Source: Amoebidium appalachense (Eukaryota; Protista; Ichthyosporea). From it: a DNA stretch of 64,000 bases. Positions 3,378 through 43,724 of this stretch are shown in pieces. Both the position numbers and the translations under genes were made by a program. The first letter of the stretch is position 1. Each line of letters opens with the position of its first letter. Below the pieces are notes generated by a model. That model was not told the origin of the DNA. It saw only the letters and a program-made list of their open reading frames with translations, and did no database searches. The stretch lies in NCBI GenBank assembly GCA_963693365.1, contig CAVNZM010000008.1:10503172-10567171 (forward strand), written 5' to 3'.

Positions 3378-3818
3378 GGGGAGAGGGGCGGAGGGAGGGG
3401 GGGGGCCAACCAACATACCACATTCAACAGATAGCTTCTTGAACACCTTTCTTCCCAGTGTGGCTGCAGGTACTTTTTGCATCCACGAGAGTGCACTTGC
3501 GCCGAGTTCTCCGCTGGTTAGGCTGTATTTTATTTGTACAACACATCAGTTTTGCACGGTCCCAAACGAAGACTCGTGTACGGGCTCGTCAACTTACGAC
3601 CATCAGCTTGCATTTGGTCGTTTCGCTGATCAACCAGTCCACTCGTTTGATGAAGAACTCACTCAGACCAGCCCTGTAGAAAATGGGGGGGTGAGAAGAA
3701 AGCACACGAAAAAGGGATGAAGGAAGAAAAACGTGAAACGACCAACGGGCGTTGGGGTTGTTACGGAGGGGGGTGGGAGGGAGGGGGGGGGGAGGGGGGA
3801 GGGGGGATGGAGGTAGGC

Positions 3819-4361
3819 GAGGGCACGCTACAAGGGCCTTGGTACCGTACCCTTTGGCCGTTACACAAAGTGCTCGGCGCTGGGTGGTTTTCGCCGCCAC
3901 AAAGGCCTTGGCAAATTTAACCACAGCAACAAGAACTTGGTAAAGCAGAGGAGGAAGGGAGGGTGAAAGGGGGGAAAGGAGAGGGGGAGGGGAAGGAGGA
4001 GGAGGGGAGCGGAGAGGGGGGAGGGGGGGGGGGGGGGGGAGGGCAACGCTACAAAAGCCTTGGTACCCTGCCCGTTGGCCGCTAAGCCAGGTGTTTGGTG
4101 CTGTGGGGGTTTCGCCGCCACAAAGGCCTTGGCAAGATTTACCACAGCACCAAAAGCTCGGCAATACGGAGGGAAAAAAGAGGTCGGGGGAAGAGGGGAG
4201 GGGGGGGAAGGTGAGGGCACCGCTACAAGAGCCTTGGTACCCTACCGATTGGCCGTTACACAAAGTGCTCGGGCTGGGTGGTTTTCGCCGCCACAAAGGC
4301 CTTGGCAAAATGTACCACAGCACCAAGAACTTGATAACGCAGAGAGCCAAAAGGAGGCCCC

Positions 4362-4400
<39 letters not shown>

Positions 4401-4930
4401 ACCGCTGCAAGAGCCTTGGTACCCTACCCGTTGGTCGCCAAGCCAAGTGCTCGGTATTGCCGGGTTTTTGCCGCCCCAAAAGCCTTGGCAAAAACATACC
4501 ACAGCACCAAATACTTGGTAATGCGGAGGAAGAAAGACGGGAGAAGGTGGGGAAGGGAGGATTAGGGGGGGGGGGGGGGGGGGGAGGGGAGAGGGGAGAG
4601 AAGGGGAAGGTGAGAGGGCACCGCTACAAGAGCCTTTGTACCCTACCCATCAGCAGCTACACAAATTGCTTGGTGCTATGTGGTCTTCGCCGCCACAAAG
4701 GCCTTGGCAAAACTGACCACAATGCCAAGAACTTGGTATCGCGGAAGAGCTACAAGGAGGCCCCGGAGGCTGGAGGGGGGGAGGAGGGAGAGGAGAGGGC
4801 GAGGGCACCGCTACAAGAGCCTTGGTACCCTGCCTAGTGACCGCTAAGCCATGTTTTTGGTGCTGCGGGGTTCTCGCCGCCACAAAGGCCTTGGCAAAAA
4901 ATATACCGCAAACCCCAAGAACTGGGTAAG
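3819..4930. repeat. Tandem array of six ~125-bp units separated by variable G/A-rich spacers
   Basis: Units start at ~3819, 4039, 4213, 4397, 4614 and 4801 (GAGGGCACCGCTACAAGAGCCTTGGTACC...CGCCGCCACAAAGGCCTTGGCAAA...CCAAGAACTTGGTAA). Confidence 0.9.
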
Positions 4931-5589
4931 GCAGAAAAAAGGAAGAAGCCAAGCAGAACAGCCAGTGCACAGGCGTCTTACAAACGTACTAAGCAAGACC
5001 TATTCACACAATGCCTCTTTTCACCCTCACCCACCTTTTTTCTCGACGTTGATGGCAAGCCGACGTAGGCGTTCAAAAACATCGCAATGCTTCACTTAAA
5101 GTTTGAGGACTCGATCTTCCGTGACGACCCAACTCCGGGTTCCATGCCTCCATGCCACAGCGTCGGACACTTGCATCTGCGTTTATGCGTGTGGTAAAAA
5201 TAGACCAACCACGAAGCCTGTACTGACGAAGGTCATGATTTAGATAGCTTATGTCGAGGTTGTATATACGTAATTTGATTTAAGTATCTGTCATGTTTGC
5301 AAGCTCTTGAGATTTAACGCCAAAATTGTTGCTCCCAGGAAGAGGCGAGAGCCGAAACATTGGTCAGGCTACGTGGAGGTTTATGATGTGTATGTACACG
5401 CGTCATAGTTCTGGTCGCCATCATGCTGGTCGATGCGTGATCTGTTTTCATAGGCGGCGTGGCTGACTTTTAGAGGTTCTTGGCCTATGACAACGGAGAA
5501 GAAAAAGCAGCAGACGGAGAAGAAAAAGCAACAGATCTAGAACAGCCTGACCTTTGAGGTCTCAGTGAAGTTTCGAGTTACAGTAGCAC

Positions 5590-5721
5590 AGTAGATAGAC
5601 ATGGGGCAATGCGCCCCACTTTTATCGGGTGAGCCTGGGCCCGGGCTGGGATCGTCCGATCGACCCATGACACCCGACCCGACCCGACCCGACCGGGCAA
5701 GCACGTCACCGACCCGAACCT
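5590..5721 (+). repeat. Left TIR core (132 bp)
   Basis: Matches the reverse complement of 16427-16557 except for one extra G (CAATGCGCCCC vs CAATGCCCCC). Contains (GACCC)n pentamers. Confidence 0.97.
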
Positions 5722-5894
5722 GGAAGGTGCAATCTGAAAAAGACCCATCCATCTGGCCCGACTCGAACCGAACTGACCCGATCATCGGATCGTCGACCCG
5801 AATGTTCATTACCCCGGCCCTGTAGGCAAGCGCGTTTTTTTTTTGCCACCCCAACCTGGATGCGCGTCATAGGGTGACCCCCCAACCACAAGTC

Positions 5895-5923
5895 AAAAAA
5901 AAAAAAAAAAAAAAAAAAAATAA

Positions 5924-5986
<63 letters not shown>

Positions 5987-5988
5987 AA
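5895..5988 (+). repeat. Poly-A plus (TAAA)n microsatellite within the left subterminal region of the element
   Basis: Read directly from the sequence; it lies between the second and third degenerate inverted-repeat blocks. Confidence 0.9.
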
Positions 5989-6047
5989 TACAATTCCGGG
6001 ACCCCAATGGCATAGTAAAACAGACACGAGGCCCGAAAGTCAAAATC

Positions 6048-6427
6048 ATGTCTGCCCCGGAGAATCACGACGATAACACCCAACATGTTAACGTTGGTGA
6101 TCAAGAAGAAATCAACATGCATGACGACTCAGATGTTGGTGATGAGTACGACTATGATCATGATGAGTGGGCCCTCTATGATGCTATGCGTGAGGAAGCA
6201 CTTGAAAATGCTGTTGATCAGCTGGTGGAGGATTATGAAATGGGAGCGGAAGAGATCTGTTACAAATCGGAATACCAATCAGTATTTGCCATCTGATGGG
6301 AATGCACGCAATTTGCTACACATTCGAAGTGGATGCCCTTGAAGCGTTGAATTTAGCGGGCCGGATGTCCCGTGAGGAATTTGAAGGCTACGTGCAGATG
6401 GCACAGCAGGCCGAGCCAGCGAGATAA
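6048..6427 (+). CDS. Small acidic hypothetical protein of the element: 82-aa ORF plus an overlapping 43-aa ORF, possibly one frameshifted gene
   Basis: ATG in AAAATCATG context at 6048; D/E-rich ORF to TGA at 6296. A TGATG overlap starts MGMHAICYTFEVDALEALNLAGRMSREEFEGYVQMAQQAEPAR* (6296-6427). Confidence 0.55.
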
Positions 6428-6659
6428 CACTACATCATGATCAGATTCTAACCTTGTAGGGTGGGTGATGCCTCCACTTCCCTACCGGACCACTGGCACT
6501 GGCAGGTCAGCCGACCGCCCGGACCAGCCCAAAGTATTTCTGACCTGGACCTCACTGGCAGACTTGTTCATGTCGGGACTGCCCGATGATCCTTTATTTT
6601 TTTAGCTCCGCCAATCAAACGACACCAGCCAACTTGAACTAACTGGGTTTTGTCACATT

Positions 6660-7913
6660 ATGACATCGACTCCATTAACCACACACTGTTTCGCACCCGG
6701 TACGCTCTATGCTGACATCTTGTCGTTGACATCATGGGTTTACACCCCAAAGGTTGTTGAGATTCAGTCCATGGGACCCAAAACGGTAGGCATTCCTTCA
6801 GTTCGTCGCAGACGCCCTGTGGTGTTTGACCTCACCGCACATAACGGTGGTTACGGCTACTTCTTAACTCTCATAGACCCTTCGTCGAAACGTGGTGTAT
6901 GGCAGCCAATACCGTCCAAATCATCCGCAGACACCTCGCAAGGATTCAGCAGATGCCTGAGAAGATTATACCATCTGCAAAGGCAAGCATACAGACCCGA
7001 AAATGAAACTGTGTTCCCAGGCTTCCGGTCAAAACAATCCGACTATGACACAGGAGGTCAAAACCATCTATATAATCAGCTATTCACCGATGGAGGATTA
7101 GAGTTCCGAGGTGTCTTTGCGGTGGAGCTAGACGCATGGGGAATACGACACAATGTGGTAACACCAGGTGACAAATGGAAAATGAGCCCGGTGGAATCAT
7201 TCAACAAAACTCTCCGCAAGATGATTTCTCGACACTTCATGAATGCAGGTACAACTGGATTTGACTTGGTCACAACGCAAAGGTGGTTGCAGTTGGAACA
7301 GGAATACAATATCAGCAGACCTCACAAGTTGCATGGTAAGCCGCCCGCCTTTGTTACAAGACATGACGAGCGCACTTTACGTATAAAGCTGTTCCACAAA
7401 CGCATGAGTGACTATCGCAAGCACTACACCTTCAAACCAGGTGACCATGTTCAGATACGCAACGCAATCTTTTTGTATAAGTCATCTAGTTTTGGCGACC
7501 AGCATGGCCGTGGCGGTAACGTACTCTACAAGGCCAGCATGGATCCTAACCGCCCCGATCCAGAGTGGGACCATCGAACCTACGTTGTAGACAGTTTAGC
7601 AGGTTTCAAATACGCACTGAATCTTGTGACCCTTGATCCCAGGGAGGCGTACACTCAAACCAAAACCTACAGGCATCCCCGGGATATAAGAAAGGTACAA
7701 TTCACTGAACAGTCATTGACAAGCTCATCCAATGTCCACATGGACAAAATAGATTTGGACGCCATGTCTGAACTGGACAAGGAGCTGTATGCAGCAGACA
7801 TCCTTACAGGTATGAAGCAGAGCAGGAAGCGTACCACTGATGAAACATATCAACCACCCGATCGACGCTTCTACAAAGTACAGAAAAGGCAAAGTCGCAA
7901 CACCAACTCATAG
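6660..7913 (+). CDS. Retroviral-type (rve) DDE integrase, Polinton-like
   Basis: LYADIL ... YFLTLIDPSSK ... LFTDGGLEF ... PVESFNKTLR (34 residues between D2 and E) ... EYN..RPH..HGKPP ... FKPGDHVQI. Uninterrupted 417-aa ORF; no HHCC finger or chromodomain seen. Confidence 0.93.
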   Translation: MTSTPLTTHCFAPGTLYADILSLTSWVYTPKVVEIQSMGPKTVGIPSVRRRRPVVFDLTAHNGGYGYFLTLIDPSSKRGVWQPIPSKSSADTSQGFSRCLRRLYHLQRQAYRPENETVFPGFRSKQSDYDTGGQNHLYNQLFTDGGLEFRGVFAVELDAWGIRHNVVTPGDKWKMSPVESFNKTLRKMISRHFMNAGTTGFDLVTTQRWLQLEQEYNISRPHKLHGKPPAFVTRHDERTLRIKLFHKRMSDYRKHYTFKPGDHVQIRNAIFLYKSSSFGDQHGRGGNVLYKASMDPNRPDPEWDHRTYVVDSLAGFKYALNLVTLDPREAYTQTKTYRHPRDIRKVQFTEQSLTSSSNVHMDKIDLDAMSELDKELYAADILTGMKQSRKRTTDETYQPPDRRFYKVQKRQSRNTNS

Positions 7914-8055
7914 AGCCACCCGCCTACTTGGTCACATTGACTCAAGTCACTGGTCGCGGCGCGGCGACCGATGTCACGTCATGACATCTGGGTCATTTTT
8001 TTTTTCTGTGGTCACCATCAAATCCTACTGCTCAGGTGACCCAAGGTCCAAAACC

Positions 8056-8559
8056 ATGGCTTCAAGTCGGCTTAGCAATGACGACCTGTACATGTCGATC
8101 CGGTCCGTAGTTGACGATTTTACAGCCATCAGCAGCAATCCAGCCAAAGAGCTGACAAAGAAGCAAACATTACTCAAAAAGAGACTTGGATCAAGAATCA
8201 TTCAAGCCATGCGCACCGCACAGGTCTCACAGCTCTTCACCTCATCACACATCATCTTACTCAACAGAGTTGAAGGACGTAGTGTCCTACCAATGAAGTC
8301 CCTCACTGCTGTGGTGGAAGAATACTTCAACACCACAAAGGAGGTAACGGCAAGTGGCCTTCTGACACAGCTACGCAACGCTCGTCCATGCACGGTAGCC
8401 TGGCGATTATCCGTTAGGTCCAGAGTGGCAGACCCCAATTGGTGTCGGGTATCCATGAATCCAATCCCCAACAAAACGGCCATGGCACCAACACCGGCCA
8501 CCGTGACCCACCGCGACAAAGTGACTCTCGTGCCAGCAAGCGGCGAGCTCAAGGCCTGA
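8056..8559 (+). CDS. Hypothetical protein, N-terminal ~120 aa resembling the giant-virus (NCLDV) DUF5760 family
   Basis: ATG in AAAACCATGG context. KELTKKQTLLKKRLGSRIIQAM...LPMKSLTAVVEEYF...ASGLLTQLRNAR...RLS fits the recalled DUF5760 pattern. The family call is by eye only. Confidence 0.55.
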   Translation: MASSRLSNDDLYMSIRSVVDDFTAISSNPAKELTKKQTLLKKRLGSRIIQAMRTAQVSQLFTSSHIILLNRVEGRSVLPMKSLTAVVEEYFNTTKEVTASGLLTQLRNARPCTVAWRLSVRSRVADPNWCRVSMNPIPNKTAMAPTPATVTHRDKVTLVPASGELKA

Positions 8560-9608
8560 AAAAAAAAAATGCCAACTCCTCAGGAAACAAGGTTAACACT
8601 TCAGCTGTCAACGAAATCACAGAGATGTCAAGGTCCACAGACTCGATGCTGGTAGATGACATCACGATGGATCAGAGTCTTCACCAAAGCAAGGAAGACA
8701 ACACCTCCACATTAACACCAATTGTACCAACTGGTCCAAGCTTGTTCTCACTTGACGCCGACAACAAAATAACAGCATCTAACAAATCCTACCAGTACAC
8801 GGGTGTGCTCAAATCCATCCCAGCAGCAGAGCTCGTGGATGCCATGCAGTTGGCATTCCCCACACAAGTTTCACAAATTGTCACACGGTTGACGGATGTC
8901 TATGGCAGCAAAGTTTCCAAGAACAGCATCAAACAAGTCCTGCTGCGGAACCCAGGTCTCGTCAAGCAGATCCACAAATCCACAGATCCGAGAATCGCAC
9001 AACTCCGTCAAGTAACCGAAAACAAGTTCAATGCAAAGTTGGAACGTTTTCGCGCGGAAGCCCCAGTCAAGGCTTCCATCAACAGATTGGTCAACCCACA
9101 CGTCCGCGGCTACAAGGGTTGCCTTCTCACCAAACTGCAGCCCCAGGATTACGAGGACTGTGCAAAAATGGGGAGTCTGGGGAACCCCACATACCAACTA
9201 CTCGGCAAGGGTGACGGCGCACCACGCAAGTCGATACGAGACGTAGTCGTCACCGAAAAAGCAGACACACATATTGGTGGCGAACTGGCCAAGCGTGCCA
9301 AGGACATGGTTTCACTTACTCCGGCCGTTCAAAGCTATTTCCCAAACACGGTCCGCAAAGCCATTGTCCAGCAGGGCACATACCGCCCCAACGACGACGG
9401 AAGTCAAATGAAAGAAATCAGAGCCACCCTGATGGCTGAAGAATTAAGAACAAGAGAGAAGCTCAGCGCCATACGCCTTGCTCAGGCCCAAACGTCCATG
9501 GCGTCAGCAGGCTTTGCACCTCGATACTCCTTATCGGCCGATAGGAGTGTACTCAGTCAGGATTTCGATTCGAGAACACCATCACAGACACCCAACCAGA
9601 CCTACTAG
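8439..9608 (+). CDS. Hypothetical protein (probably helical); may be the frameshifted C-terminal continuation of the 8056 ORF
   Basis: 389-codon open frame with first in-frame ATG at 8625. It overlaps the upstream ORF, and a 1-nt loss near GACCCCAATT (8431-8440) would fuse the two into ~516 aa. No jelly-roll, Walker A or protease motif seen. Confidence 0.7.
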   Translation: MVSGIHESNPQQNGHGTNTGHRDPPRQSDSRASKRRAQGLKKKNANSSGNKVNTSAVNEITEMSRSTDSMLVDDITMDQSLHQSKEDNTSTLTPIVPTGPSLFSLDADNKITASNKSYQYTGVLKSIPAAELVDAMQLAFPTQVSQIVTRLTDVYGSKVSKNSIKQVLLRNPGLVKQIHKSTDPRIAQLRQVTENKFNAKLERFRAEAPVKASINRLVNPHVRGYKGCLLTKLQPQDYEDCAKMGSLGNPTYQLLGKGDGAPRKSIRDVVVTEKADTHIGGELAKRAKDMVSLTPAVQSYFPNTVRKAIVQQGTYRPNDDGSQMKEIRATLMAEELRTREKLSAIRLAQAQTSMASAGFAPRYSLSADRSVLSQDFDSRTPSQTPNQTY

Positions 9609-9699
9609 TACTAGTAGGCACATACAGCGCTTTGGGAACGCCACACCCACCAACATCGACCAACCCCGGTCGCCCCCCAAACACCACTCGCCCCCCTAA

Positions 9700-10250
9700 A
9701 CTGTCATACGCCTCGCCCGCCCTGTCCGTACCATCCGCCACATCCGTACCGTCCACCCCTGTCCGTATACATCCCCGTCCATACTGTCTGCCCCCCATCT
9801 TCACAGTCCACCTCGTCCACACCGTCCGCCCCGTCCATACCGTCCGCCCCGTCTGTACCATCCGCCCCCGTCTGTACCGCCCGCCCCGTCTGCACCGTCC
9901 GTACCGTCCGTACTGTACGCCCCGCCCCGTCTGTCACGGTGCTCAGGTACCACCCGTCCTGGACCGTCCGCCCCGTCTGTACCGTCGACGTCCGCCCTCC
10001 GTCCGTACCGTCTGCCCCATCCGTACCGTCCGCCCCACCCGCCCTGGACCGCCTGCCCTTGACCACCCGCCCCGTCCGTCCCACCCGCCCCTTCGACGTC
10101 CGTCCCAACCGACCCGTCCGTCCTACCCGCCCAATGCGTCTCACCCACCCCGTCCGTACCATCTGCCCCTGCCGTACCATCAGTCCCGTCCGTACCATCA
10201 ACCCCGTCCGTACCATCCGTCCCGTCCGTACCTGGGCCGTCCGACCCACC
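9700..10250. repeat. Degenerate 9/18-bp C-rich tandem repeat between the convergent genes of the element
   Basis: Repeated CCGTCCGTAC / CCGCCCCGTCTGTAC units; the minus strand reads as Gly-Thr/Ala/Val-Asp triplets. Confidence 0.85.
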
Positions 10251-10254
10251 CGCC

Positions 10255-13200
10255 TTAGGGTTGCACGTAGCCGTACGGCACAGAGTCCACATTGAGGACC
10301 TCCGAGTCATCTCCATCCTCCGCATACCTTGCCTTGTATACTCGCTTGTTGAGGTTCACCCTGATGCCGACACTCCTGTGGGCGACGTTCACATCTCCCG
10401 CACGTGTCCGCGACCAACGGTTCTGGTGCACAAACACTCTATCTGTGCCCACGCAGGCTCGGGTTCTGTCGAGTGACTCGGGTTCTGCAGGTGCTTCACT
10501 GAAGAACTTGTTCAGCATACCCGTGAACGTAGGCACCCCTACAGGTGTCGACATCTCCAACAACCTTGTTTGGTGGATGCCCTTACACTTGACGTGCTGG
10601 ACCGCCGGCCCGCTGGCATCGCTTACGGTGACGCCGTATGACTTGGGCCCCGTGCTCCGGAACTGGGTGATGGCTGCCAACCCGGTGTCGCTGTCGAAGA
10701 AGTCTTTTTCTTTTGTCATCCGACCCAGACCGACGCCCGTAGCCAAAGGCACCTCGCCGTCCAGTGTCTCAAACATGACGATGTCCGTGTCGCCGTACAC
10801 GACGCGGTCGGCCCCGCCTTCGTTGGCATACCGCCACCACATGCTGCGGCCGTAGGCGGTCGTGAACACCCCCATAGGTGTGCTGATGTTCTCGCCACAG
10901 CCCGGCTCCGCAGACCGGTAGGTGGCCTCCACCATGCTCTCTGTCTTTACCACCAGGCTCACATCCTTGACCTCACCGTTCAGCATCCTCTTTTTCAGCT
11001 CGACTAGCGACGCAAAGTCGGAGATGTACTCTGACCTGGGCTTGTCGGGATCCATGGCGAACCTGCGGTACGACGAGTTCATAATGAGCTTCCACACAGT
11101 TCGCACTGCGTTGTTGGGGCTGCACTGCTCAGGCAGCAGGCGTCCCTCGTCGTCCGGCCCGTAACCCAGCGACCGGTTTATTCTCTCCACGAATGCCGCG
11201 AGCGCCTCGGGGTTGCCGCCAGCCCCCGCATCCGCGGCCGTCTTGAGCTTGAACACCGTCCGCACAAACTTCCGGAACAACATGTCGTCCTTTCCTTCGT
11301 AAACCTCGGCCCAGAAGACCTTGGTGATACGCACCTCCCCCGCCCGGACGGCCTGCGCCAGCGCCTGCACTGTGTACACCCCCTCCATCTCCCGCTCCTC
11401 GTCCTGGTGGGTGCAGGACGTAGATTTGGTCACGGCACATACACCGCACAGCGCAAACACCAGCCGTGTCTGTGGGGTTGAGTCTTGCGACAGCACGGGG
11501 CACCAGCTCTTCCCGTCAACGCACCCGCCACCACATCCGCCGGCGCAGCCACGGACGCCCCGCGCATCGTCCCTCTCAGCGATACGACAGTGCAGGAGTG
11601 GCACCTTGGTATGTGGTGCCGCCACATACGGGACGTGCGCGATGGCCAGTCGTCCCCGGGTCATCTCCAACAGCCGCGCCTCCTCTTCCCACAACGGCTC
11701 GTCTGTGGCCTCGTGCTGTGGAGCGGCACGGTCAGGCGGTACGTACTCGACATCGTCCATGGCCGGTTCGCCGGGTAGGCTGCAGAGGGCAAACAGGCGT
11801 GCCTGGGGGAAGTGCTCTCCTCAGCCGCGCCATCTGTCAGGCTACCCATGATGGTTGGTGAAGGCACACCCGCCGCAGCCACCTCAAACCACTGGCGTCC
11901 ATAGTACACGCAGCCGCCCGTGGGATAGGCTAAGGTCATCATGGCAGGGTACATGGAGGCCACGTCCACGTACGCCACACGGGTGCCGTCGACGGTCCGG
12001 GGTTTGAAGACCTCCACACGGCCGCCCGAGTATGCCAGCCTTGGACGGTAGGCACGCACGTTGGCTTTGGTGGCGGCCACCATGGCGTTCACGTCTGCGT
12101 AGCCAGCACGGCGGACAGCTGCCTCGTACTCCGCAACGTCGCCGTTGCTAATGACCATGGTTGGCATCCATCTCCCGTCGATCAGCTGTTCGGTGACACC
12201 GCACTCCCAGCGTACCACCACCTCCACCTGTGCTGTCGCCTGCATCGCCTGTGCCTTGTGGACCGTAGCCACGTACCTCTGCAAAACCTGTGGGTTCTCA
12301 TGTTCCGACGATGTCTTGGGCGCCAGGAAGCAAGAGCCTGAAGCTGCGTGTCCGTGGGCATAGCACCCGTTGTACTCGAACACACGGATACACCTCGTGA
12401 CCTTGCGTCCAACGGCGGAGGTCTCGCTCACCTCCGCCATGTCCGGCACCCATGAGGCACGCGGGCCCGGGAGGGATGCGTTGCAGTTGCCATAGTACAG
12501 GAAGGGGCCCGCGGCAGTGTTCAGGAGTGCCTGGTGGGCTGCGTCAGCACCGTACTTGTCACGGATCATCTTCCAACGCACCATGGACACCCAGGCACAC
12601 TCGCCGCGCGACGAGTTGTTGTTCCTGGTCATGGCCTTGGCAGCTGCATCGTACACGTGGGGCTTGGGGCGCAGGTCATCCCTGGGAAGGCCGCCGGGGT
12701 AGCCAGTGGACAGCACGACGCGCTGTGCCAGCCCTGCCAGCGTCACATTCTGGTGGGGGTCGAGCTTGCCCCACTTTTGATTGTCCCTCTGCTCCTTCGT
12801 AAGCCCGAGGGAAGCCAGCGTCCTCACGGCCTTTCGGATGTTGACAGTGTGGTGTACGAGCGCAAGCATCAGCACCTCCACGTCCCGGCGACAGTACTGC
12901 ACGCGCTTCGCGGGGTTGTCAAAGGCCAGCCCCGCCGGACCATGAGTGGCAAGGACCGCCGACATGAGCTTCAGGGCCACCTTGAGCGTCAACCTGCAAG
13001 CCAGGGCGGCCTGATCCTCTGCAGATGTGACGCCCATCCTAACCACAAAGGCGGCAATGATGTCACACTGCTTCGTGTACCCCTTTTGTACCACTTCCTC
13101 CACCATGGCCTGGCGGAAGACACTGTCTCGCAGGAGGGTGTGGAACCACACGCGTTGCTCGAAGATTCGGTCAAGCGGGTCGAGGATGTGGCCAAATCGC

Positions 13201-16200
13201 TTTGAATTTTTGAGCTTGGAGGTCGAGGAGGGTACAAGCGGCTGCGTCTCGGACGTTGTAGACGCGTATTTTGCCCATGTCTCCTTCATGTCCATCTTGC
13301 CACGGGTCTTGTGCTCGTCAAAATTGTAGTAGTTGAGACCTGGGACGGCGCCGACATAGTCGACGTTGGCTGCGACGTTGAAGGTTACCGGGTAGGACGA
13401 CTTGCCGGTGAGGTGCTCAAACCCATACATTTTGGGGATGTCCGCCAGCGGTGCAGGAATGTGCTTGAGTGTATCCCTGAACGTGACCCCCCTGCTGTAG
13501 GGGTCCATGCCTTTCTGAGGGCTGACTGTAACCTGGAAGACGCCACTGCCGTTGGGTATCTTGCTGAACTTGAGATTGTGAGCCTCCAGATACTTGATCA
13601 CGAACAGCGTGTCGAAGTTTCCTCCATTGTGAGCCATGAACACGTAGCCCTCGTGCACAAAGCTTTTGCTTGTCTTGGTGACGGTGGTGCAGCCGATTTT
13701 CTGTTCCTTGGTGGTGTTCTGCGTTGCAAGGACCCACTTCATGAACCGGTCCATGGCATTGCTACCCGTGAAGGCGTATGTGTACTTGCCGGGTTGGAAC
13801 TTTGCCTCATTTTCCATGATTTCTGTGGAGCACAGGTCCTCTAGGTGCCGTAAGACAGGGACTGGTATGGCCTGCGGGATCCCGCCTTCCCCGAGCGCAG
13901 CCTTCTCCCCACCTTCCGGGACCGTGCAGTATGCTCCCACGACGTCGCACACCTGCATGGGTTTGCCCTCATCTGTGGTGGTTTCAATGTCCCACACCAC
14001 AACCTTGACAGTCTCTGCCTTCAAGTTGCTGTTGGTGCAGGGCTTTCTCTTGGTCGTTTTCCCGAGACCATCCTTCAGTGTAAGGGGTTGCACCGAGCAT
14101 GTGTGGGTGCCGCGTACCGTCACTGCACCACATCCGAAGCACTTGGCCATTATGCAGAGGGCGGGGGAAAGGTTCACGTGAAGCCGCCCCCAGTTGACGT
14201 CCGAGACGGGTTTCCCGGTTTGAATCACGCTGGCGGTGTAGAAGTCCTTCAATGCCTTAAGCATGTGCGCACCTGTCGCCGGAGGATGGTCAAGCTTCAG
14301 CTCGCCAATGTCACAGTTCGCAATGACATTTTCCAAGACCTGGGACTGGTGAGGGTTCTTATCGCTGAGCCCCTGTTTCAGAAGGTCCTTGGTGTACCCT
14401 GCCTCGTGGGAGGACTGGCACGTGTGACACCAGAAGACAGCCTTCGATTCTCCCGTGCGGGCCTTTGCCCTATGCATGGGTCTGAGCTGCTTCTCGTACC
14501 GTAACATGCATCGCGGTTCGTGTTGCTTGGCGCACTCTGTAGGCAGCCACACAGCGCAGTAGTTACACTGGCCACATGTGATGCCTGTGGCCAGAGGGTC
14601 AGTCGGAGTGTGTAGGTGCCGGTCTCCAGACTGAAGGCCACACCAAACACAGGAGCATTGCCCGGCAAGGACCTCACATGGGTGGTCGTCAGTTTTCCAC
14701 AAACCACACACAGAGCAGAATCGCATGTTGTTGGTTTTTGAGGTTGCCTTGTGGAGACGCCCTAGTAAGGTGGGTGTTGGCGATCCAAACTGTGTGGAAC
14801 TGAGATCGTGGCGTAGGTTGCGGCTGCTCTGGTGACATGTCCTCCTCGTCGCTGCTCTCACACTCTGAGGATGATGTGTCGTCGGACAGGTCGTCCAGCT
14901 CCACCATCTCTGCATCTTGGGCAGCGTCCCCGGTAGCTTCACCACCCTGGTCGTCCATATCGGGATCGAGCCTGATAGCGGTGGTGGCCACGCCCAAATA
15001 CACTGTTTTGGCATCCGGGTCGTACTCCTCTTTAGGATCTGGGAATGTGGCCATGTGACATACACTTGTGTAATGGTCTGCCAGGATGGGGTCGAGATCG
15101 TAAAGCTGGACCCGGAGTGTGGTGTAGAAGCCAGGGATCACGAGAGGTTCGTCCAGAACGAGGCTGGGGTCTGTGATGTCAAGTCCCTGCGCCACGGCAG
15201 CGGCTCTTGCGCCACGGACACGTGCATTGATCAGATCCACACACCTGCCAATGTTCTCGAACCGTACCCCGTTGTTCTGGCTCCACAATCCGGCGCTCTG
15301 TAGCACACTGACACATTGCTTAACATCTTGGCTGAACAGCTCCTGTTCCTTGCGAGTCTGTAGAGGTGGCTTTTTGGCAGACTTGCGCCACCTGGATGGA
15401 TCGCCACGGCAGGTGTCCATCTCTACTTGATCCTCTTCGTCATTACTGTGACCGGTGGCTTGGTTTTTGACGTTGCTTTGCATGTGAGCTGCCAGAACCA
15501 ATGAAGTGGGTAGACAATCGTTTGCGCCGGCACTCCCTGAGAAGTCCACAACGAGTCGCTGTTGTCCGGTACCGGAAAGCAGGGTGGTCCATTTGTTACC
15601 CAGTTCGCTCTCACCTACATTGGGAGACCAGGGCAGGCCTGTGCGTGCACGCGCTCCAAAGCGAGTGTTGTCAACATTGATGAAGGTGATGTACATCCGT
15701 ACATTGGCAATCTCGTGGACCTCATACTGACCAGTGATGGCTTCAATGAGGCTGCCTGGTGCATACTCGACAAACTCACGCCAACGCATCAGAGTCCCAT
15801 TGGCGCTGTTGTCAATGCTGTTGACGGGACGAGCAAATACCTGTTCGCCCGGACGTTCCGGAGATGTACATGTTATGTGGACGGTTGCCAGGACATGTGA
15901 ATCGGGAGGGATTTCGGAGCGAAGCCTCACTACCTCCATCATGCGTTGCATGTGAGTGTGTAGGTCTTCAACATGTAGGTTGTTGGTGACGTCCGCAGAG
16001 CTGTAGCGAACATTGTAACCATTGACTGCGTTGCCCAGAGCAGTCTGTCTCATGATGTTGTAGGCGCTCTCCATGGCCTGGACATCGTTGGCGAACAGGT
16101 CTCTCCTAACATGTTCATGGATGGTCGGCACCTCCGAGGCTACGTGCAAGACGCAGGTCGTCCTCAACGACATCCTCCGGGCCATGATTGTTCATGACAC

Positions 16201-16273
16201 GTTCAATCTCATTGACCCAGTTGTCATAGACGTGGCCAACGTTGGCACTTTGAAAGTTGCGAGGGGCAGACAT
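10255..16273 (-). pseudogene. Protein-primed family B DNA polymerase (putative terminal protein-vOTU-Zn fingers-Exo-VSR-like insert-Pol), ~2005 aa reconstructed, three frameshifts
   Basis: ExoI VVWDIET, ExoII AHNGGNFD, FRDTLKHIPAPL, ExoIII YCRRDV. VSR-like FEYNGCYAHGH...RWECG. YSGGRVE, motif A DVASMYP, motif B KLIMNSSYRRF, motif C YGDTDI, GPKSY, KCKGI. N-terminal NDCL...FHTVWI plus CxxC clusters. Joins ATG 16273 to ORFs 16185-14689, 15065-11661 and 11760-10255 via shifts at ~16134, ~14775 and ~11815. Confidence 0.92.
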
Positions 16274-16426
16274 GATTTTTGACTTTGGGGTTTCGTGTCT
16301 GTTTTACTATGGGGGTCGGAAAAAAAAAAAAATTTGGGTTCACGCTCCGACATGGACTGCCGGGTTGGGGGACCAAAAAACGCGCTTGCCAACAGGGGGG
16401 TTATGAACATTCGGGTCGCGATTTCT

Positions 16427-16557
16427 AGGTTCGGGTCGGTGACGTGCTTGCCCGGTCGGGTCGGGTCGGGTCGGGTGTCATGGGTCGATCGGACGATCCC
16501 AGCCCGGGCCCAGGCTCACCCGATAAAAGTGGGGGCATTGCCCCATGTCTATCTACT
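16427..16557 (-). repeat. Right TIR core (131 bp)
   Basis: Reverse complement of 5590-5721; followed by GCAC. Confidence 0.97.
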
Positions 16558-16955
16558 GCACTTTATATACCTGCAGGTCTGCAGTGTTCACCAATGATAA
16601 GAGGCTATCTCTTCTATCCAATTACAATGACGTTGCTAAGCAAACGATTACATTATCGTCTTTTAATTGGTCAAAGCCATGCATCAGTGGATCCCCCAAA
16701 AAGGCTGTCACTTGCTGGGCGAGTCACGATTGCTTTCGTGTATCCTACTGTTTGTATTGAGAAGCCAAGGTAAGAAAACCCCCAAAGACATCGCACACAT
16801 TTTTTTTTGGCTCTTTACTATGTAAATTAAGGAGCTTATTTCTATGTCTGTCAGACCGTAAGTGACTTAGAGTTAGAATAGCATCTATTTCGATCGCTAT
16901 AACATGTGTACATCTATTTCGATCGCAATATTAATAACGTGTACACGTGTGCGTG

Positions 16956-29869: not shown

Positions 29870-31721
29870 CTGAGCAACACCCTCTCTTTGTTCATGCCCT
29901 CTGGCTCTGTGGTGCTGTGTGTCCATATCTGCATGTTCTTCTATGTGCTGCGCTGGTCTCTTCGTTGAATGTTTCCTGCTATGTTTTGTGTCACACAATC
30001 GAAACCTGCCTTCCCCTCTACCCCCAACCGCCTCACCCCCCGCCCCCCCCCCCCCCCATCCCTTCATTATGATATTATTTATGTATGCTTCACTCTGGTT
30101 TATGTTGGTGGTCATGAGCGTGTACGTCGTACTCTATAACACCCTCGAAACCCCCCGCCCCCTTCACCCCCCCACCTCCTTACGCCCACCCCACCCCTCT
30201 TCGACCCAGACCCCACCCCACCACAACCCGTAGTGTTCAAGTGAACAGTATTTGAGTTGGATTTCGTTGACGTGGTGAATGGGTCGAAGCTCGGGTGCTG
30301 TGGATGGCATACCCCCCCTCCCCCCTCCCCCCCCCCCCCCTCCCCCCCCCCCCCCCCCCCCCCCGATGGGCTCTGGTTGTTATACACCCTATTTTGTGTG
30401 ATTCGCTCCGCTTTATTTTATTCGGTATGAATAACTTTATACTTTATAACACCCAAATCCTCCAAACAATCATCGTGTTAGTTTTCCTCACCACGAGAAC
30501 GGGTCTTATACCCGGACTATGCACTGATGATGGGGGGATTTCCGTTGGTGCTGAGTAATCTCTGTGTGCTCGCATTCTGTTACTCACCATATGCACTGCC
30601 ACGGGTACTTCTCATGTCCGAGTGCAAAGTGTATCGGGAACCGCATCCTCCTCCTCCGCCCCTTCCCCTCCTCCCCATCCTTCGCCTCTTTGCATGTTGT
30701 TTTCTTCAGTCTCTCCCTAACACAATTATTACGCAATCCTATCCCCCTCCCCCCCCCCCCCCCCTTCCCCCCCCCCCCCCCCCCCGCGCACTCCTCACCC
30801 ACCCTACCACCCACCCATCCACCCCCCCCCACCCCTCAACATACACCCCCGCACACACATACCTACATACACACGCGCACGCTCGCTGCACACACACATA
30901 TACCTTTCAGGTCGACGCATACAAGGTGCCTGAGGGTTGGATGCTCGCAGGCCGTGAGGAGGTCGTGGGCACAAATTTCGGACAGATGGGTGCAGGGTGT
31001 CTGGTTGCTTCCGACGGGCACGCATACCAGAGCAATACCAAAGACCCGTGCTACAAAAATGTCTTCCCCGTTCCCATTGTTCTTCTAGGGCATTCCGGAA
31101 AGGAATGGAGCGTGTGGTGGCCAAATTTGGACGCTGGGGCTCTTAGGTTACCTATAATTAGGCCGGTGATTAGCGAGAAAGCCGGTGCGATGGCGTTGAA
31201 TAGTGAAATGAGTACGTTGTTATTGACGACTTATGACGCGGAAACGCAGCCGGAAAAAGCAAACGGAGACACGTCACTCAGCTATGCACGAAAAGTGCTA
31301 CAGGATGCGGGGGTGAAAATTACAGAGGTTGGAATTATCGGAGAGGGAAATCAACCCACCACAGATTTCCAGAAAATTCAATTTTACTCTGGAGACGGAC
31401 AAAAACCCCCACTTTTCCACTCTGTCGTGCTGACGACAAGCAAACTTTCATACCAAAGGAATGACGGCGAATGGGCAAGCGCCCTTTCAACCACCCAATG
31501 GGATTTGTTGTATCGATACTGCGGGAAAAACGGGGTTCGTTCATGGTCGGTGTATACCTTTCCGGGATCAGACATTGGATACAGCCCCAAAGATGGAGTC
31601 CCCCCGGCGAGTAATACCGACACGGGGTTTATGTGGTTTGTGCAGGCGAATTTGGCCAAAAAGACCTACGATCTACAGGGCCCACTAAAGTATGCTTAAT
31701 CATCCCCCCCCCCCCCCCCCC

Positions 31722-41371: not shown

Positions 41372-42341
41372 CTGCAATAGAAGGAAACAACATGAATCCA
41401 CCATAAGATCCCTCTCATCCCGACTCCCCCCCCCCCCCCCCCCCCCCTTCCCCAAACACTCATCCTCTCTCCTCGGTCCTCTCTGGCCCCAGAACCCAGA
41501 AACACACGCACGCACACACACGTGAGCGAGGGCCTGTCGTCCCGTGTTCAACACCCTTACCTCATTACATGTCTCTCCTGTAGAAGGGTGCCTAATCTGC
41601 CATGATCCATCCCCCCCCCCCCCCCCCCCCCCAACCCTTCTCCCCCTCACCCCAACCCCCTCTCACACACACCATCACCACCACCACCACTGTCTAGTCC
41701 CGGCCTTTTCTTATATATAGCTGAAATTAAGTCACAGAAGAGAGAAGTTCAAGCATCGACCCCACGATCAAGTTTCCTTCCACACAGTCCACACAGGCAC
41801 CTGCGATCGACCCACAACACAAAAACATGCGAATTGTCGCCTCACACACTTGAATATAGCTATTTTTCTCAGCCTAAACATACCATTTTTTTAGTTGAAT
41901 GTATCACCCTGGGCACATAAACTCCACACGAGTGCACTACACGCTTGTTCTAGATTTCTGTTCGCTTTGTGCTCTTTGAACTGCCGGCGGGGCTGGGTTC
42001 ATATGAACACGGCGTGGGCGCGGGAACTTCAAAGGTCTCGCGCCAAAAATATAAACCCCATTTATTCGATATTCTGTTGGTCGTCATGTCACTGGCTGCA
42101 TTTGATTGGCTGTGCTGGAAAACGCAGTAGGCCGTCGAATGTGGCTGGGCCTCCGGCAATGTCCACGCAATAAAAAGTGTGTAAACCCCCTTGAGTATTT
42201 ATATGATTTTCACACAGTGTTCAGGTATCTCAGTCTGCACTTGTTACTGGATAACTCGTGAAGTTTTTATTGTCTTCTCAGTATGCCGTGCATACTTGCA
42301 TATCTTTCCGTCGAATAAATCCAGTCAAAAGAAAATTTTAC

Positions 42342-43724
42342 TGTAGCCCCTTTTTGTTTAACCTATTTATAGATGATTTGGCTGTCAAGATTTACGCCGA
42401 AAACGATGACCCTATTAATAACTTTCCGCCTGCACTTCTCTATGCTGATGATCTGTCCCTCCTTGCCCGTACCCCTAGACGCCTGCAAAGATTGTTCGAT
42501 GTAGTGTCAGAGTGGTGCAAGGCAAACCTTATGATCCTTAACATAGACAAATGTGGTGTTCTTGTACCTGATATAGCTAACAATTTACACACATTTACAT
42601 TATCATCTAAACCTGTACCTATAGTTCCAGAATACAAATATCTTGGTGTTCCGGTTGATTCTGTTGGTGTTATGTTTCCCCATATGGTCGAAAAGAGGGT
42701 AGAGTTGGCTCGTAAGCGGTTAGCTTTCTTCTCGGCTAATATTTTTAAAGACACACCCCTCCATCCTTCTATTAGACTTACATTTATTCGCACTTTTGTC
42801 TTCCCGGCATGTGAATATGGTTTACCCCTTCTCGCCGCTTGGATCAAGAAAGAGAGAACTAGAGCGCTTAAACCCTTGGCAAATTTCCTTGAAGCAGAAG
42901 TTGCCTCCTTTCTATCTAACAACTGTTGTAAACCTGGGCCTGTAACGCTCTCGATATATGGTCTGGTCCCAATAGCTGCTAGAGTATCCTATCTCGCGCT
43001 GAAATTCAATAAGCACATAAGCCGCTTAAAGAAGTATTTGCCCTCCCACCCTCTCTTCTCTATCCGACCTGTCCCCTCCTCACCTCTCCCCTCTTTCCTC
43101 CCCTCTCTCTCCCCTTCTCCCCTGGGCACAAATACAAATAAACCCCGCAATAGTGTGTGTGTGACTTTGGACTGCCACTTACTTATTAAACATGTACACA
43201 ATCACAAGATAATCACGCAATATAACAAATGGAAAAAGATACCAAACGACACTAGACCCGATGAAAGCATACACCTTGAAAAACTAAGCCTTATGTCTCG
43301 TTTTATATATACTGACCGCCTCAACCATATTGCCAAATATGGCACTCGCAAGTGTATAACACCTAAATACATATTACCTCCCTGTAGAACTGGTCTTTCT
43401 CTAGCTGATGGTATTATTGATCAATTACCACGCTTTTACTGTACACGTGCTATACAGTGGAGATCTAATAAGTATAAGGTGGCATCATTTGCATGCCCAA
43501 ACAACACACACACACACCAGTTTAACCGGTCATGTATCGCCAAATGTAGTTTGATAGACCACATAATACCGCAACACACACACGTCACATTCACAACAGA
43601 CACCCAGAAAGATAGCCTACCTGTAAATTACAACATCCTTGATTTTATACTAAACACGCGTAACTACGACCTGTTTATTAGATGTATTGATTGGCTTGAG
43701 AAACACATCACTACAAAATTATAG
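42342..43724 (+). CDS. Reverse transcriptase (non-LTR), N-terminally truncated, no endonuclease present
   Basis: YADD catalytic motif and thumb motifs; C-terminal Cys/His cluster CPNNTHTHQFNRSCIAKC. Confidence 0.88.
   Translation, partial: CSPFLFNLFIDDLAVKIYAENDDPINNFPPALLYADDLSLLARTPRRLQRLFDVVSEWCKANLMILNIDKCGVLVPDIANNLHTFTLSSKPVPIVPEYKYLGVPVDSVGVMFPHMVEKRVELARKRLAFFSANIFKDTPLHPSIRLTFIRTFVFPACEYGLPLLAAWIKKERTRALKPLANFLEAEVASFLSNNCCKPGPVTLSIYGLVPIAARVSYLALKFNKHISRLKKYLPSHPLFSIRPVPSSPLPSFLPSLSPSPLGTNTNKPRNSVCVTLDCHLLIKHVHNHKIITQYNKWKKIPNDTRPDESIHLEKLSLMSRFIYTDRLNHIAKYGTRKCITPKYILPPCRTGLSLADGIIDQLPRFYCTRAIQWRSNKYKVASFACPNNTHTHQFNRSCIAKCSLIDHIIPQHTHVTFTTDTQKDSLPVNYNILDFILNTRNYDLFIRCIDWLEKHITTKL

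Follow-up and report, generated by a model that had tools for sequence, protein, structure and literature searches.

The stretch analyzed here, 64,000 nucleotides of contig CAVNZM010000008.1 of the ichthyosporean Amoebidium appalachense (hereafter the window), harbors an inserted element of 10,968 bp at 5590-16557 that combines a Polinton-type integrase with the frame-shifted remains of a DNA polymerase that belongs to family B and is protein-primed (pPolB). It probably descends, in reduced and no longer active form, from a Polinton virus that made particles, and it would likely have moved as a capsid-less integrase-plus-polymerase transposon. That the virion genes were lost before the insertion at this site, and that we are looking at a broken copy of such a reduced Polinton, is the explanation we favor, at roughly even confidence. 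Loss before insertion is argued from a collagen-like coding relic that is far more frame-shifted than the polymerase, from near-identical terminal inverted repeats (TIRs) and from a clean target-site duplication (TSD). Viral ancestry is argued from the same relic, the collagen fibers of Polinton-like viruses and the virion genes in related loci, and selection on the remaining genes from an excess of third-position changes relative to a sister element and from silent changes in its AGFAPRY motif.

Termini, integrase and polymerase

The left end of the element reads AGTAG and the right end CTACT. The TIRs align over 136 columns, of which 134 are identical, with one mismatch and one gap. Their 22-base terminal sequence occurs twice in the window, both times at the element ends, and gave no match in the viral contigs. 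When the flanks were compared at lengths of 3 to 8 bp they agreed at 4 bp only (GCAC); such a match arises by chance about once in 256 cases at fixed ends, and the duplication rests on one insertion. A sequence-only reading of this DNA had already noted both termini and a TSD, as found here, but its span of 5586-16561 includes the TSD in addition to the element proper.

The AG/AGT-type ends are those of Polintons. The literature gives a Polinton TSD range of 5-8 bp (bioRxiv 10.1101/2023.08.22.554363), and vertebrate Polintons are described with AG/AGT-type ends and a TSD of 6 bp (PMC8097293). The 4-bp duplication falls outside this range, which hints at a distinct integrase subgroup. A literature search combining Polinton, 4-bp TSD and protist returned only the Ginger paper (PMC2836005), where 4 bp is typical; this is no proof that 4-bp TSDs of Polintons are unreported. 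Two pairs of inverted sub-terminal blocks lie internal to the TIRs (Table 1), of which the inner pair is likely a promoter and start cassette common to the two outermost genes. Variant contigs of the right sub-terminal region (16243-16485), with 5-6 differences and small insertions, were found in sequencing runs X2, X4 and X6; they might represent an allele or the terminus of a further member of the family.

The integrase frame was recognized weakly by Pfam (rve_3, E 0.0013). A profile of 9 integrases from loci with related pPolB matched it with E 3e-19 over the core and the C-terminus, and the integrase family among 45 protein-family profiles, derived from 94 pPolB loci, matched with E 4e-16. 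The integrase noted in the sequence-only reading has an intact DDE core, but an in-frame stop (6603-6605) lies just upstream. The stretch that follows this stop resembles the N-terminal part of Polinton integrases when judged by eye. No H2C2 zinc finger was seen before the DDE core, and a word-based protein search gave no relatives of the integrase. Since Polintons are defined by pPolB plus an rve integrase (PMC5499653) and both are present, the element falls under that definition.

Ginger1 and Ginger2 elements (PMC2836005) also have an rve-type integrase, a 4-bp TSD and TIRs of similarly short length, features that would fit a chimera in which a never-viral cut-and-paste transposon of the Ginger type captured a pPolB gene. 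By the same description, however, TGT ends (Ginger1), an N-terminal H2C2 zinc finger and the lack of a polymerase are Ginger properties, whereas the present element has AGT-type ends, no zinc finger that could be seen and a polymerase. Its integrase matches those of Polinton loci over core and C-terminus, and it carries the collagen-like relic described below. We regard such a chimera as barely credible.

A profile built from 45 full-length relatives recognized the three long polymerase pieces in the right order. The N-terminal extension scored E 1e-4; the middle part, running from the Cys-rich region to motif A, reached E 3e-67 and the palm at the C-terminus E 1e-48. PF03175 was above its cut-off in two of the pieces. 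The weak N-terminal match includes a Cys motif. This piece gave no PDB match, and its domain names in Table 1 are taken from PMC11161782. The polymerase falls into the 'Alpha' class of PF03175, which is described as having an OTU domain (PMC8502044), and into the type that bears a very-short-patch-repair (VSR) insert (bioRxiv 10.1101/2023.08.22.554363). Divergence is high: the best match among 1.84 billion representatives had E 2.9e-13, and identity to 49 relatives was at most 28.7% over 629 columns. Informative names were obtained for 2 of the 20 matches looked up, one from Nematostella and one a very-short-patch-repair nuclease, and the middle piece had no relative among longer proteins in the word-based search. 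A pPolB tree with the 49 relatives (50 rows, 629 columns, FastTree, midpoint root) placed the polymerase on its own branch of 2.0 substitutions per site, adjoining P0023, and pointed to no donor.

The pPolB is not one open reading frame (ORF) but is split into pieces at 16191-14689, 15137-11661 and 11820-10255 in different frames, preceded by a putative first piece from 16273. Furthermore, Arg replaces the motif B Gly that 48 of the 49 relatives share (one gap), and in motif C Ile stands in place of the Ser found in 43 of them (four gaps). Sequencing error was rejected as the cause of the frameshifts because the contigs of the sequencing runs agree with the assembly here: a single 10,311-bp contig, in X2 and X4, covers 5996-16272 with no differing letter and one gap, in the A-run at 8559. 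These contigs are possibly the source of the assembly, in which case they confirm the letters but not an independent occurrence. A programmed frameshift or an intron is likewise unsupported, motifs B and C being altered too. Due to the broken polymerase this copy cannot now be the self-synthesizing transposon that had been put forward as a candidate; it is inactive. The pPolB gene expected of a Polinton is thus present in broken form, whereas an autonomous transposon would show an intact polymerase and integrase and several insertions of the same layout. Here we found frameshifts, altered motifs B and C, and near single-copy depth.

Table 1. Features of the element, in window coordinates (aa, amino acids).
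Position	Strand	Feature	Basis or remark
5586-5589	.	Left TSD GCAC (4 bp)	Flank comparison, lengths 3-8
5590-5725	+	Left TIR, begins AGTAG	Inverted-repeat alignment
5789-5840	+	Sub-terminal block	Inverted partner 16375-16422, 88%
6011-6058	+	Sub-terminal block	Inverted partner 16263-16311, 92%; ATG with Met-Ser-Ala-Pro on both sides
6048-6296	+	82-aa acidic ORF, 32% D+E, no family	
6299-6427	+	43-aa ORF after acidic ORF	
6606-7913	+	Polinton-type DDE (rve) integrase, first ATG 6660	rve_3 E 0.0013; integrase profile E 3e-19
8056-8559	+	167-aa orphan ORF (ORF 8056), N-terminal 110 aa predicted helical	Single-sequence model
8625-9608	+	327-aa orphan ORF (ORF 8625), predicted all-helical	Single-sequence model; kept in sister element
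9660-10250	-	Decayed collagen-like (Gly-Thr/Ala-Asp)n coding relic	9-bp repeat
10255-11820	-	pPolB C-terminal piece: TPR1, motifs B and C, TPR2, thumb	
11661-15137	-	pPolB middle piece: Cys-rich region, exonuclease I-III, VSR-like insert, motif A	Coding from ~14717
14689-16191	-	pPolB N-terminal piece; likely terminal protein and vOTU protease domain	E 1e-4, profile of 45 relatives
16115-16273	-	Short frame from shared start cassette; putative first pPolB piece (third frameshift)	
16423-16557	-	Right TIR, CTACT terminus	Inverted-repeat alignment
16558-16561	.	Right TSD GCAC	Flank comparison, lengths 3-8

The virion module and the collagen-like relic

About 91% of the element could be assigned and the largest unassigned gap is 322 bp, in line with the earlier statement that nearly all internal space is accounted for. 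The same note had reported no packaging ATPase, adenain-type protease or ORF of jelly-roll type, and the searches performed here agree. A scan of all six frames turned up a single Walker A pattern, located within the polymerase frame. Small profiles of four ATPases and two capsid proteins, and one protease, all taken from pPolB loci, gave a best E of 0.12 (ATPase) among 150 reading frames. Among the 45 protein-family profiles the integrase family alone matched strongly; four further matches with E 0.005-0.03 fell in short frames that overlap with genes assigned otherwise. Pfam and PHROGs gave no structural-protein match in the element. For a penton and an adenain/Ulp1 protease, Pfam, tblastn and cluster profiles were blank, and no unassigned ORF is left to encode them. 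No capsid or ATPase match was found anywhere in the window. There is no room for a jelly-roll gene in the element, and as it stands it is not a virion-forming polintovirus.

The capsid question comes down to ORF 8625, the sole orphan ORF above 170 aa and the only one long enough to matter. It had been given a start at 8439, but the open stretch before ATG 8625 needs the A-run at 8559, from which each of the three DNA runs lacks one or two letters. A single-sequence fold model predicted 12 helices and no strand of 3 or more residues, at a low mean predicted local distance difference test (pLDDT) score of 49, with averages of 76-83 for residues 61-130. Folding and Foldseek had been proposed as a check for a jelly-roll in this ORF; the search gave no significant match (best E 0.02; best Z 4.6), and the word-based protein search gave no relative. 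A death-domain-like region at residues 51-140 was rejected since the fold-search rows were at background level, and an Atlas lead to DUF4211 (0.86) had low recognition and no Pfam support. A perfect 18-bp palindrome (9601-9618) covers the stop of ORF 8625, where both gene blocks converge. It includes CTACT and AGTAG, the element's own end motifs, has a chance expectation of about 0.04 in 11 kb, and may represent a junction or a terminator hairpin serving both blocks.

ORF 8056 was also modeled as helical (single sequence, mean pLDDT 47), so that the earlier impression of one or two helical-looking ORFs is retained, on low-confidence models. Its fold search gave no significant match (Foldseek best E 0.2; best Z 6.5) and the Atlas no lead. 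It scored E 0.0011 and 19.5 bits against DUF5760, under the cut-off of 27; DUF5760 is a family from giant viruses. ORFs 6048, 8056 and 8625 had no homologue among the 94 pPolB loci, and locus searches with the polymerase C-terminal piece, the integrase and ORF 8625 gave no confirmed relative. Both helical orphan ORFs probably encode accessory proteins of a non-structural kind. At 6297-6301 the sequence TGATG overlaps the stop of the acidic ORF with the start of the 43-aa ORF, as in coupled translation.

An ordinary virus whose capsid gene, ORF 8625 or ORFs 8056 and 8625 together, has diverged beyond recognition would fit the general divergence of the element (best polymerase E 2.9e-13), the low-confidence models and the two-sequence capsid profile. 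There is also a precedent, as the Trichomonas Polinton, scored capsid-less in PMC4028283, was later found to carry a divergent capsid, from which it was suggested that Polintons are all viruses (PMC10120064). However, a 327-aa protein modeled with 12 helices, and with fair local confidence in residues 61-130, does not look like a jelly-roll, and candidates for the ATPase, penton and protease are lacking too. We consider a hidden capsid very unlikely.

Directly past the polymerase stop, on the minus strand, a 9-bp repeat reads GTDGTDGTDGVDGTDGTDGTAGADGTDG and similar runs. A repeat had been noted here before, but it is not a mere repeat: it is a decayed collagen-like coding sequence. The triplet G[TAVM]D occurs 29 times, whereas 1000 shuffles gave 0.9 on average and 6 at most, and the plus strand has none; any 9-bp repeat yields a tripeptide repeat, so this count measures periodicity and not function. 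The collagen-like reading is based on the Gly-first, stop-free frame on the coding strand. The relic has no start codon after the polymerase stop and contains at least five frame switches in ~500 bp, against three in ~6 kb of polymerase, roughly 20 times as many per base. This suggests that the relic was already decaying while the polymerase still worked.

Collagen repeats occur in fiber proteins of Polinton-like viruses and virophages (PMC12220804), and in the related locus L012 a collagen-repeat gene lies just upstream of pPolB. The relic is likely the remnant of a fiber gene, and a decayed fiber gene would imply a virion-forming ancestor. It therefore argues for reduction from such a virus and against the distinct non-viral lineage considered in the sequence-only reading. 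In L012 (5638-12460), a viral contig, a VLTF3-like gene, the collagen-repeat gene and a Polinton-class pPolB stand in a row.

The 94 loci were obtained with an alignment of 20 distant polymerases. Thirty-seven of them measure 10 kb or more; of these, an A32-type ATPase is present in 16 and an integrase in 8, both together in 7. The eighth integrase locus, L047, is truncated at 14.4 of its 18.3 kb, and by eye some of its ORFs look like capsid, penton and protease genes. Polymerases of this class thus normally accompany virion genes.

These relatives would also fit a simpler history, in which a full-length Polinton virus inserted at this site, lost its virion block in one deletion and then decayed. 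The copy is dead and near single-copy, and the relic without a start codon right behind the polymerase stop resembles a deletion scar. Degraded fossils are the rule among vertebrate Mavericks as described in PMC8097293. Against a one-off deletion, frame switches are much denser in the relic than in the polymerase even though the TIRs are 134/136 identical, and little space separates the remaining genes, no gap being longer than 322 bp. We hold this history to be a real but less probable alternative than loss of the virion genes before insertion.

Sister element and host setting

Depth over the element and its flanks was 44 versus 36 and 48 in run X2, 9-11 versus 6-10 in X6, and 151 versus 107 and 79 in X4. 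We read the element as present in about one copy, contig depth being no copy number. Sister contigs in the same three runs (one of them with a depth of 166 in X4) matched the integrase, ORF 8625 and polymerase in collinear order: 7332-7357 and 7750-7783 of the integrase (listed for X4), 8909-8974 and 9454-9504 of ORF 8625, and several polymerase pieces. These matches sit on separate contigs, and we infer that they belong to one element. A sister contig over 8844-9596, in ORF 8625, had a depth of 466 in X4 versus 151-181 for the others, about threefold, and of 40 in X2 versus 37-44.

Over polymerase positions 11234-11558 the sister has 71 differing letters and 3 gaps (~78% identity). The codon-position count used the 40 differences that were listed (32 more exist besides), minus 2 in ORF 8625; of these 38, third positions took 19, first positions 13 and second positions 6 (binomial p 0.025). 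Indels listed inside the polymerase were multiples of three, and one difference sits in the altered motif B codon. In ORF 8625 the sister keeps AGFAPRY with 6 of 7 codons silently changed (the loose ends of the match were read by eye) and, again by eye, V..L..VYG further upstream. This silent-change pattern argues that ORF 8625 is a real, selected gene of the family.

A related element in the same runs would also be expected if the present one were a satellite or half of a split genome, replicating and integrating by itself and packaged by a helper Polinton, a partner segment or a giant virus. The fibre-like relic would agree with a recent particle stage, and the weak DUF5760 match of ORF 8056 with a giant-virus connection. 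On the other hand, no capsid or ATPase match was found across the window, none of the listed contigs joins these ends to other genes although end-region variants were seen, and the fiber-like gene has decayed instead of being kept. The satellite proposal of the sequence-only reading found nothing positive in its support, and we judge it improbable.

Several observations weigh against the reduced-Polinton explanation that we favor. The relic had no Pfam collagen match, its fiber role is borrowed from PMC12220804, and collagen repeats were found in 4 of the 94 loci, three of these being one giant-virus region. The frame-switch contrast may overstate the age of the relic, as G/C-rich tandem repeats gain indels faster. 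There is one full copy, and depth in X2 and X6 equals that of the flanks, which speaks against a burst of capsid-less copies. The sister was seen as short matches only and may carry a full virion module. The fold models are single-sequence predictions with mean pLDDT 47-49, and in Trichomonas a capsid-less verdict was overturned (PMC10120064).

The element lies at the 5' end of a host transcript on the minus strand (3673-5582), whose contigs reach 5540 in run X13 and 5582 in X14. Run X13 is RNA, and one of its contigs joins 5035 to 3673 across a GT-AG intron (5034-3674). The transcript begins ~10-50 bp from the left end of the element, which may lie in its promoter or supply it. Contigs of X13 and X14, both from one study, cover parts of 5996-8163 at depth 5-24, and the region of the acidic ORF and integrase appears to be transcribed. 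Neither X13 nor X14 has a contig over ORF 8625 or over the polymerase; this does not bear on whether they are expressed.

The host intron contains a tandem array (3800-4940) of ~175-190-bp units with G-runs between them. Nearby host genes encode a DUF2045 protein, GOLPH3 (one exon scored 88 bits against the human and 62 against the yeast protein), an Agd3-type CBM87 protein, a PQ-loop protein and a reverse transcriptase of the long interspersed nuclear element (LINE) type. The CBM87 domain is in ORF 30482-31696 (E 3e-8) and belongs to a family found mainly in fungi; the LINE-type fragment is at 42255-43721 (RVT_1, E 7e-10). Adintovirus insertions that are truncated and decaying have been reported from protists related to animals (PMC11244446).

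Proposed reduction and relation to known elements

In the sequence of events that we propose, an ancestor with the fiber gene would have made virions. The virion module would then have been lost and the fiber gene left to decay, while integrase, polymerase and ORF 8625 would have stayed under selection. Replication may have followed the scheme of PMC11161782, in which a terminal protein forms part of the polymerase polyprotein, primes synthesis at the AGT-type ends of a linear copy that has been excised, and is freed by the vOTU domain; the DDE integrase inserts the product. The present copy would subsequently have inserted ~50 bp from the start of the host transcript, and its polymerase would have died after that.

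Cytoplasmic linear plasmids, transpovirons and casposons are likewise capsid-less replicons with a pPolB or a derivative of it and TIRs. The plasmids and transpovirons have no rve integrase, and casposons use Cas1. The Alpha-class (Group 2) Polintons with a VSR insert, as described in PMC8502044 and bioRxiv 10.1101/2023.08.22.554363, are alike in their rve integrase, TIRs and AGT-type ends, and in a PF03175-type pPolB with N-terminal extension, Cys-rich region and VSR-like insert. The present element differs from them in that no major capsid protein, penton, A32 ATPase or maturation protease was found, in its size of 11 kb (typically 13-25), its TSD of 4 bp (typically 5-8), its identity of at most 29% and an integrase without a chromodomain match. 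The Polinton-like viruses of PMC12220804 also have a Gly-X-Y repeat gene in a TIR-bounded element, but there the repeat is part of an intact fiber gene beside capsid genes, whereas here it is frame-shifted and alone.

Capsid-less Polintons of this size are on record. Table S1 of PMC4028283 scores 9 of 72 Polintons as lacking capsid, penton, ATPase and protease, including Polinton-1_GI/P_Gi1.1 of Rhizophagus (11,954 bp, apparently listed twice), zebrafish Polinton-2N1_DR (11,092 bp) and Polinton-1_EI, with Trichomonas also among the nine, and its authors infer concerted loss of virion genes. Compared by description, these share Polinton ends, size and the four missing genes with the present element; its 4-bp duplication, orphan genes and fiber relic may set it apart from them. 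No comparable element is described in the portions available of PMC7805220, PMC13215967, bioRxiv 10.64898/2026.10.13.758929 and 10.64898/2026.06.19.733378, whose supplements may list similar ones.

The existence of Polintons that live purely as transposons is disputed, with the nine elements of PMC4028283 on one side and the Trichomonas capsid of PMC10120064 on the other. One dead copy as it stands is a lead and not a result. With its compact layout, no room for a capsid gene, a decayed fiber relic and a sister under selection, the element would offer a clean test case. More tentatively, the two or more elements of this host, ~78% identical, might represent a stable capsid-less Polinton lineage that needs no more than pPolB, integrase and two orphan helical proteins to replicate and integrate, with 4-bp TSDs and a fiber-gene fossil. 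If true, such a lineage would capture the transition from virus to pure transposon and would be a counter-example to the view that all Maverick-Polintons are endogenous viruses.

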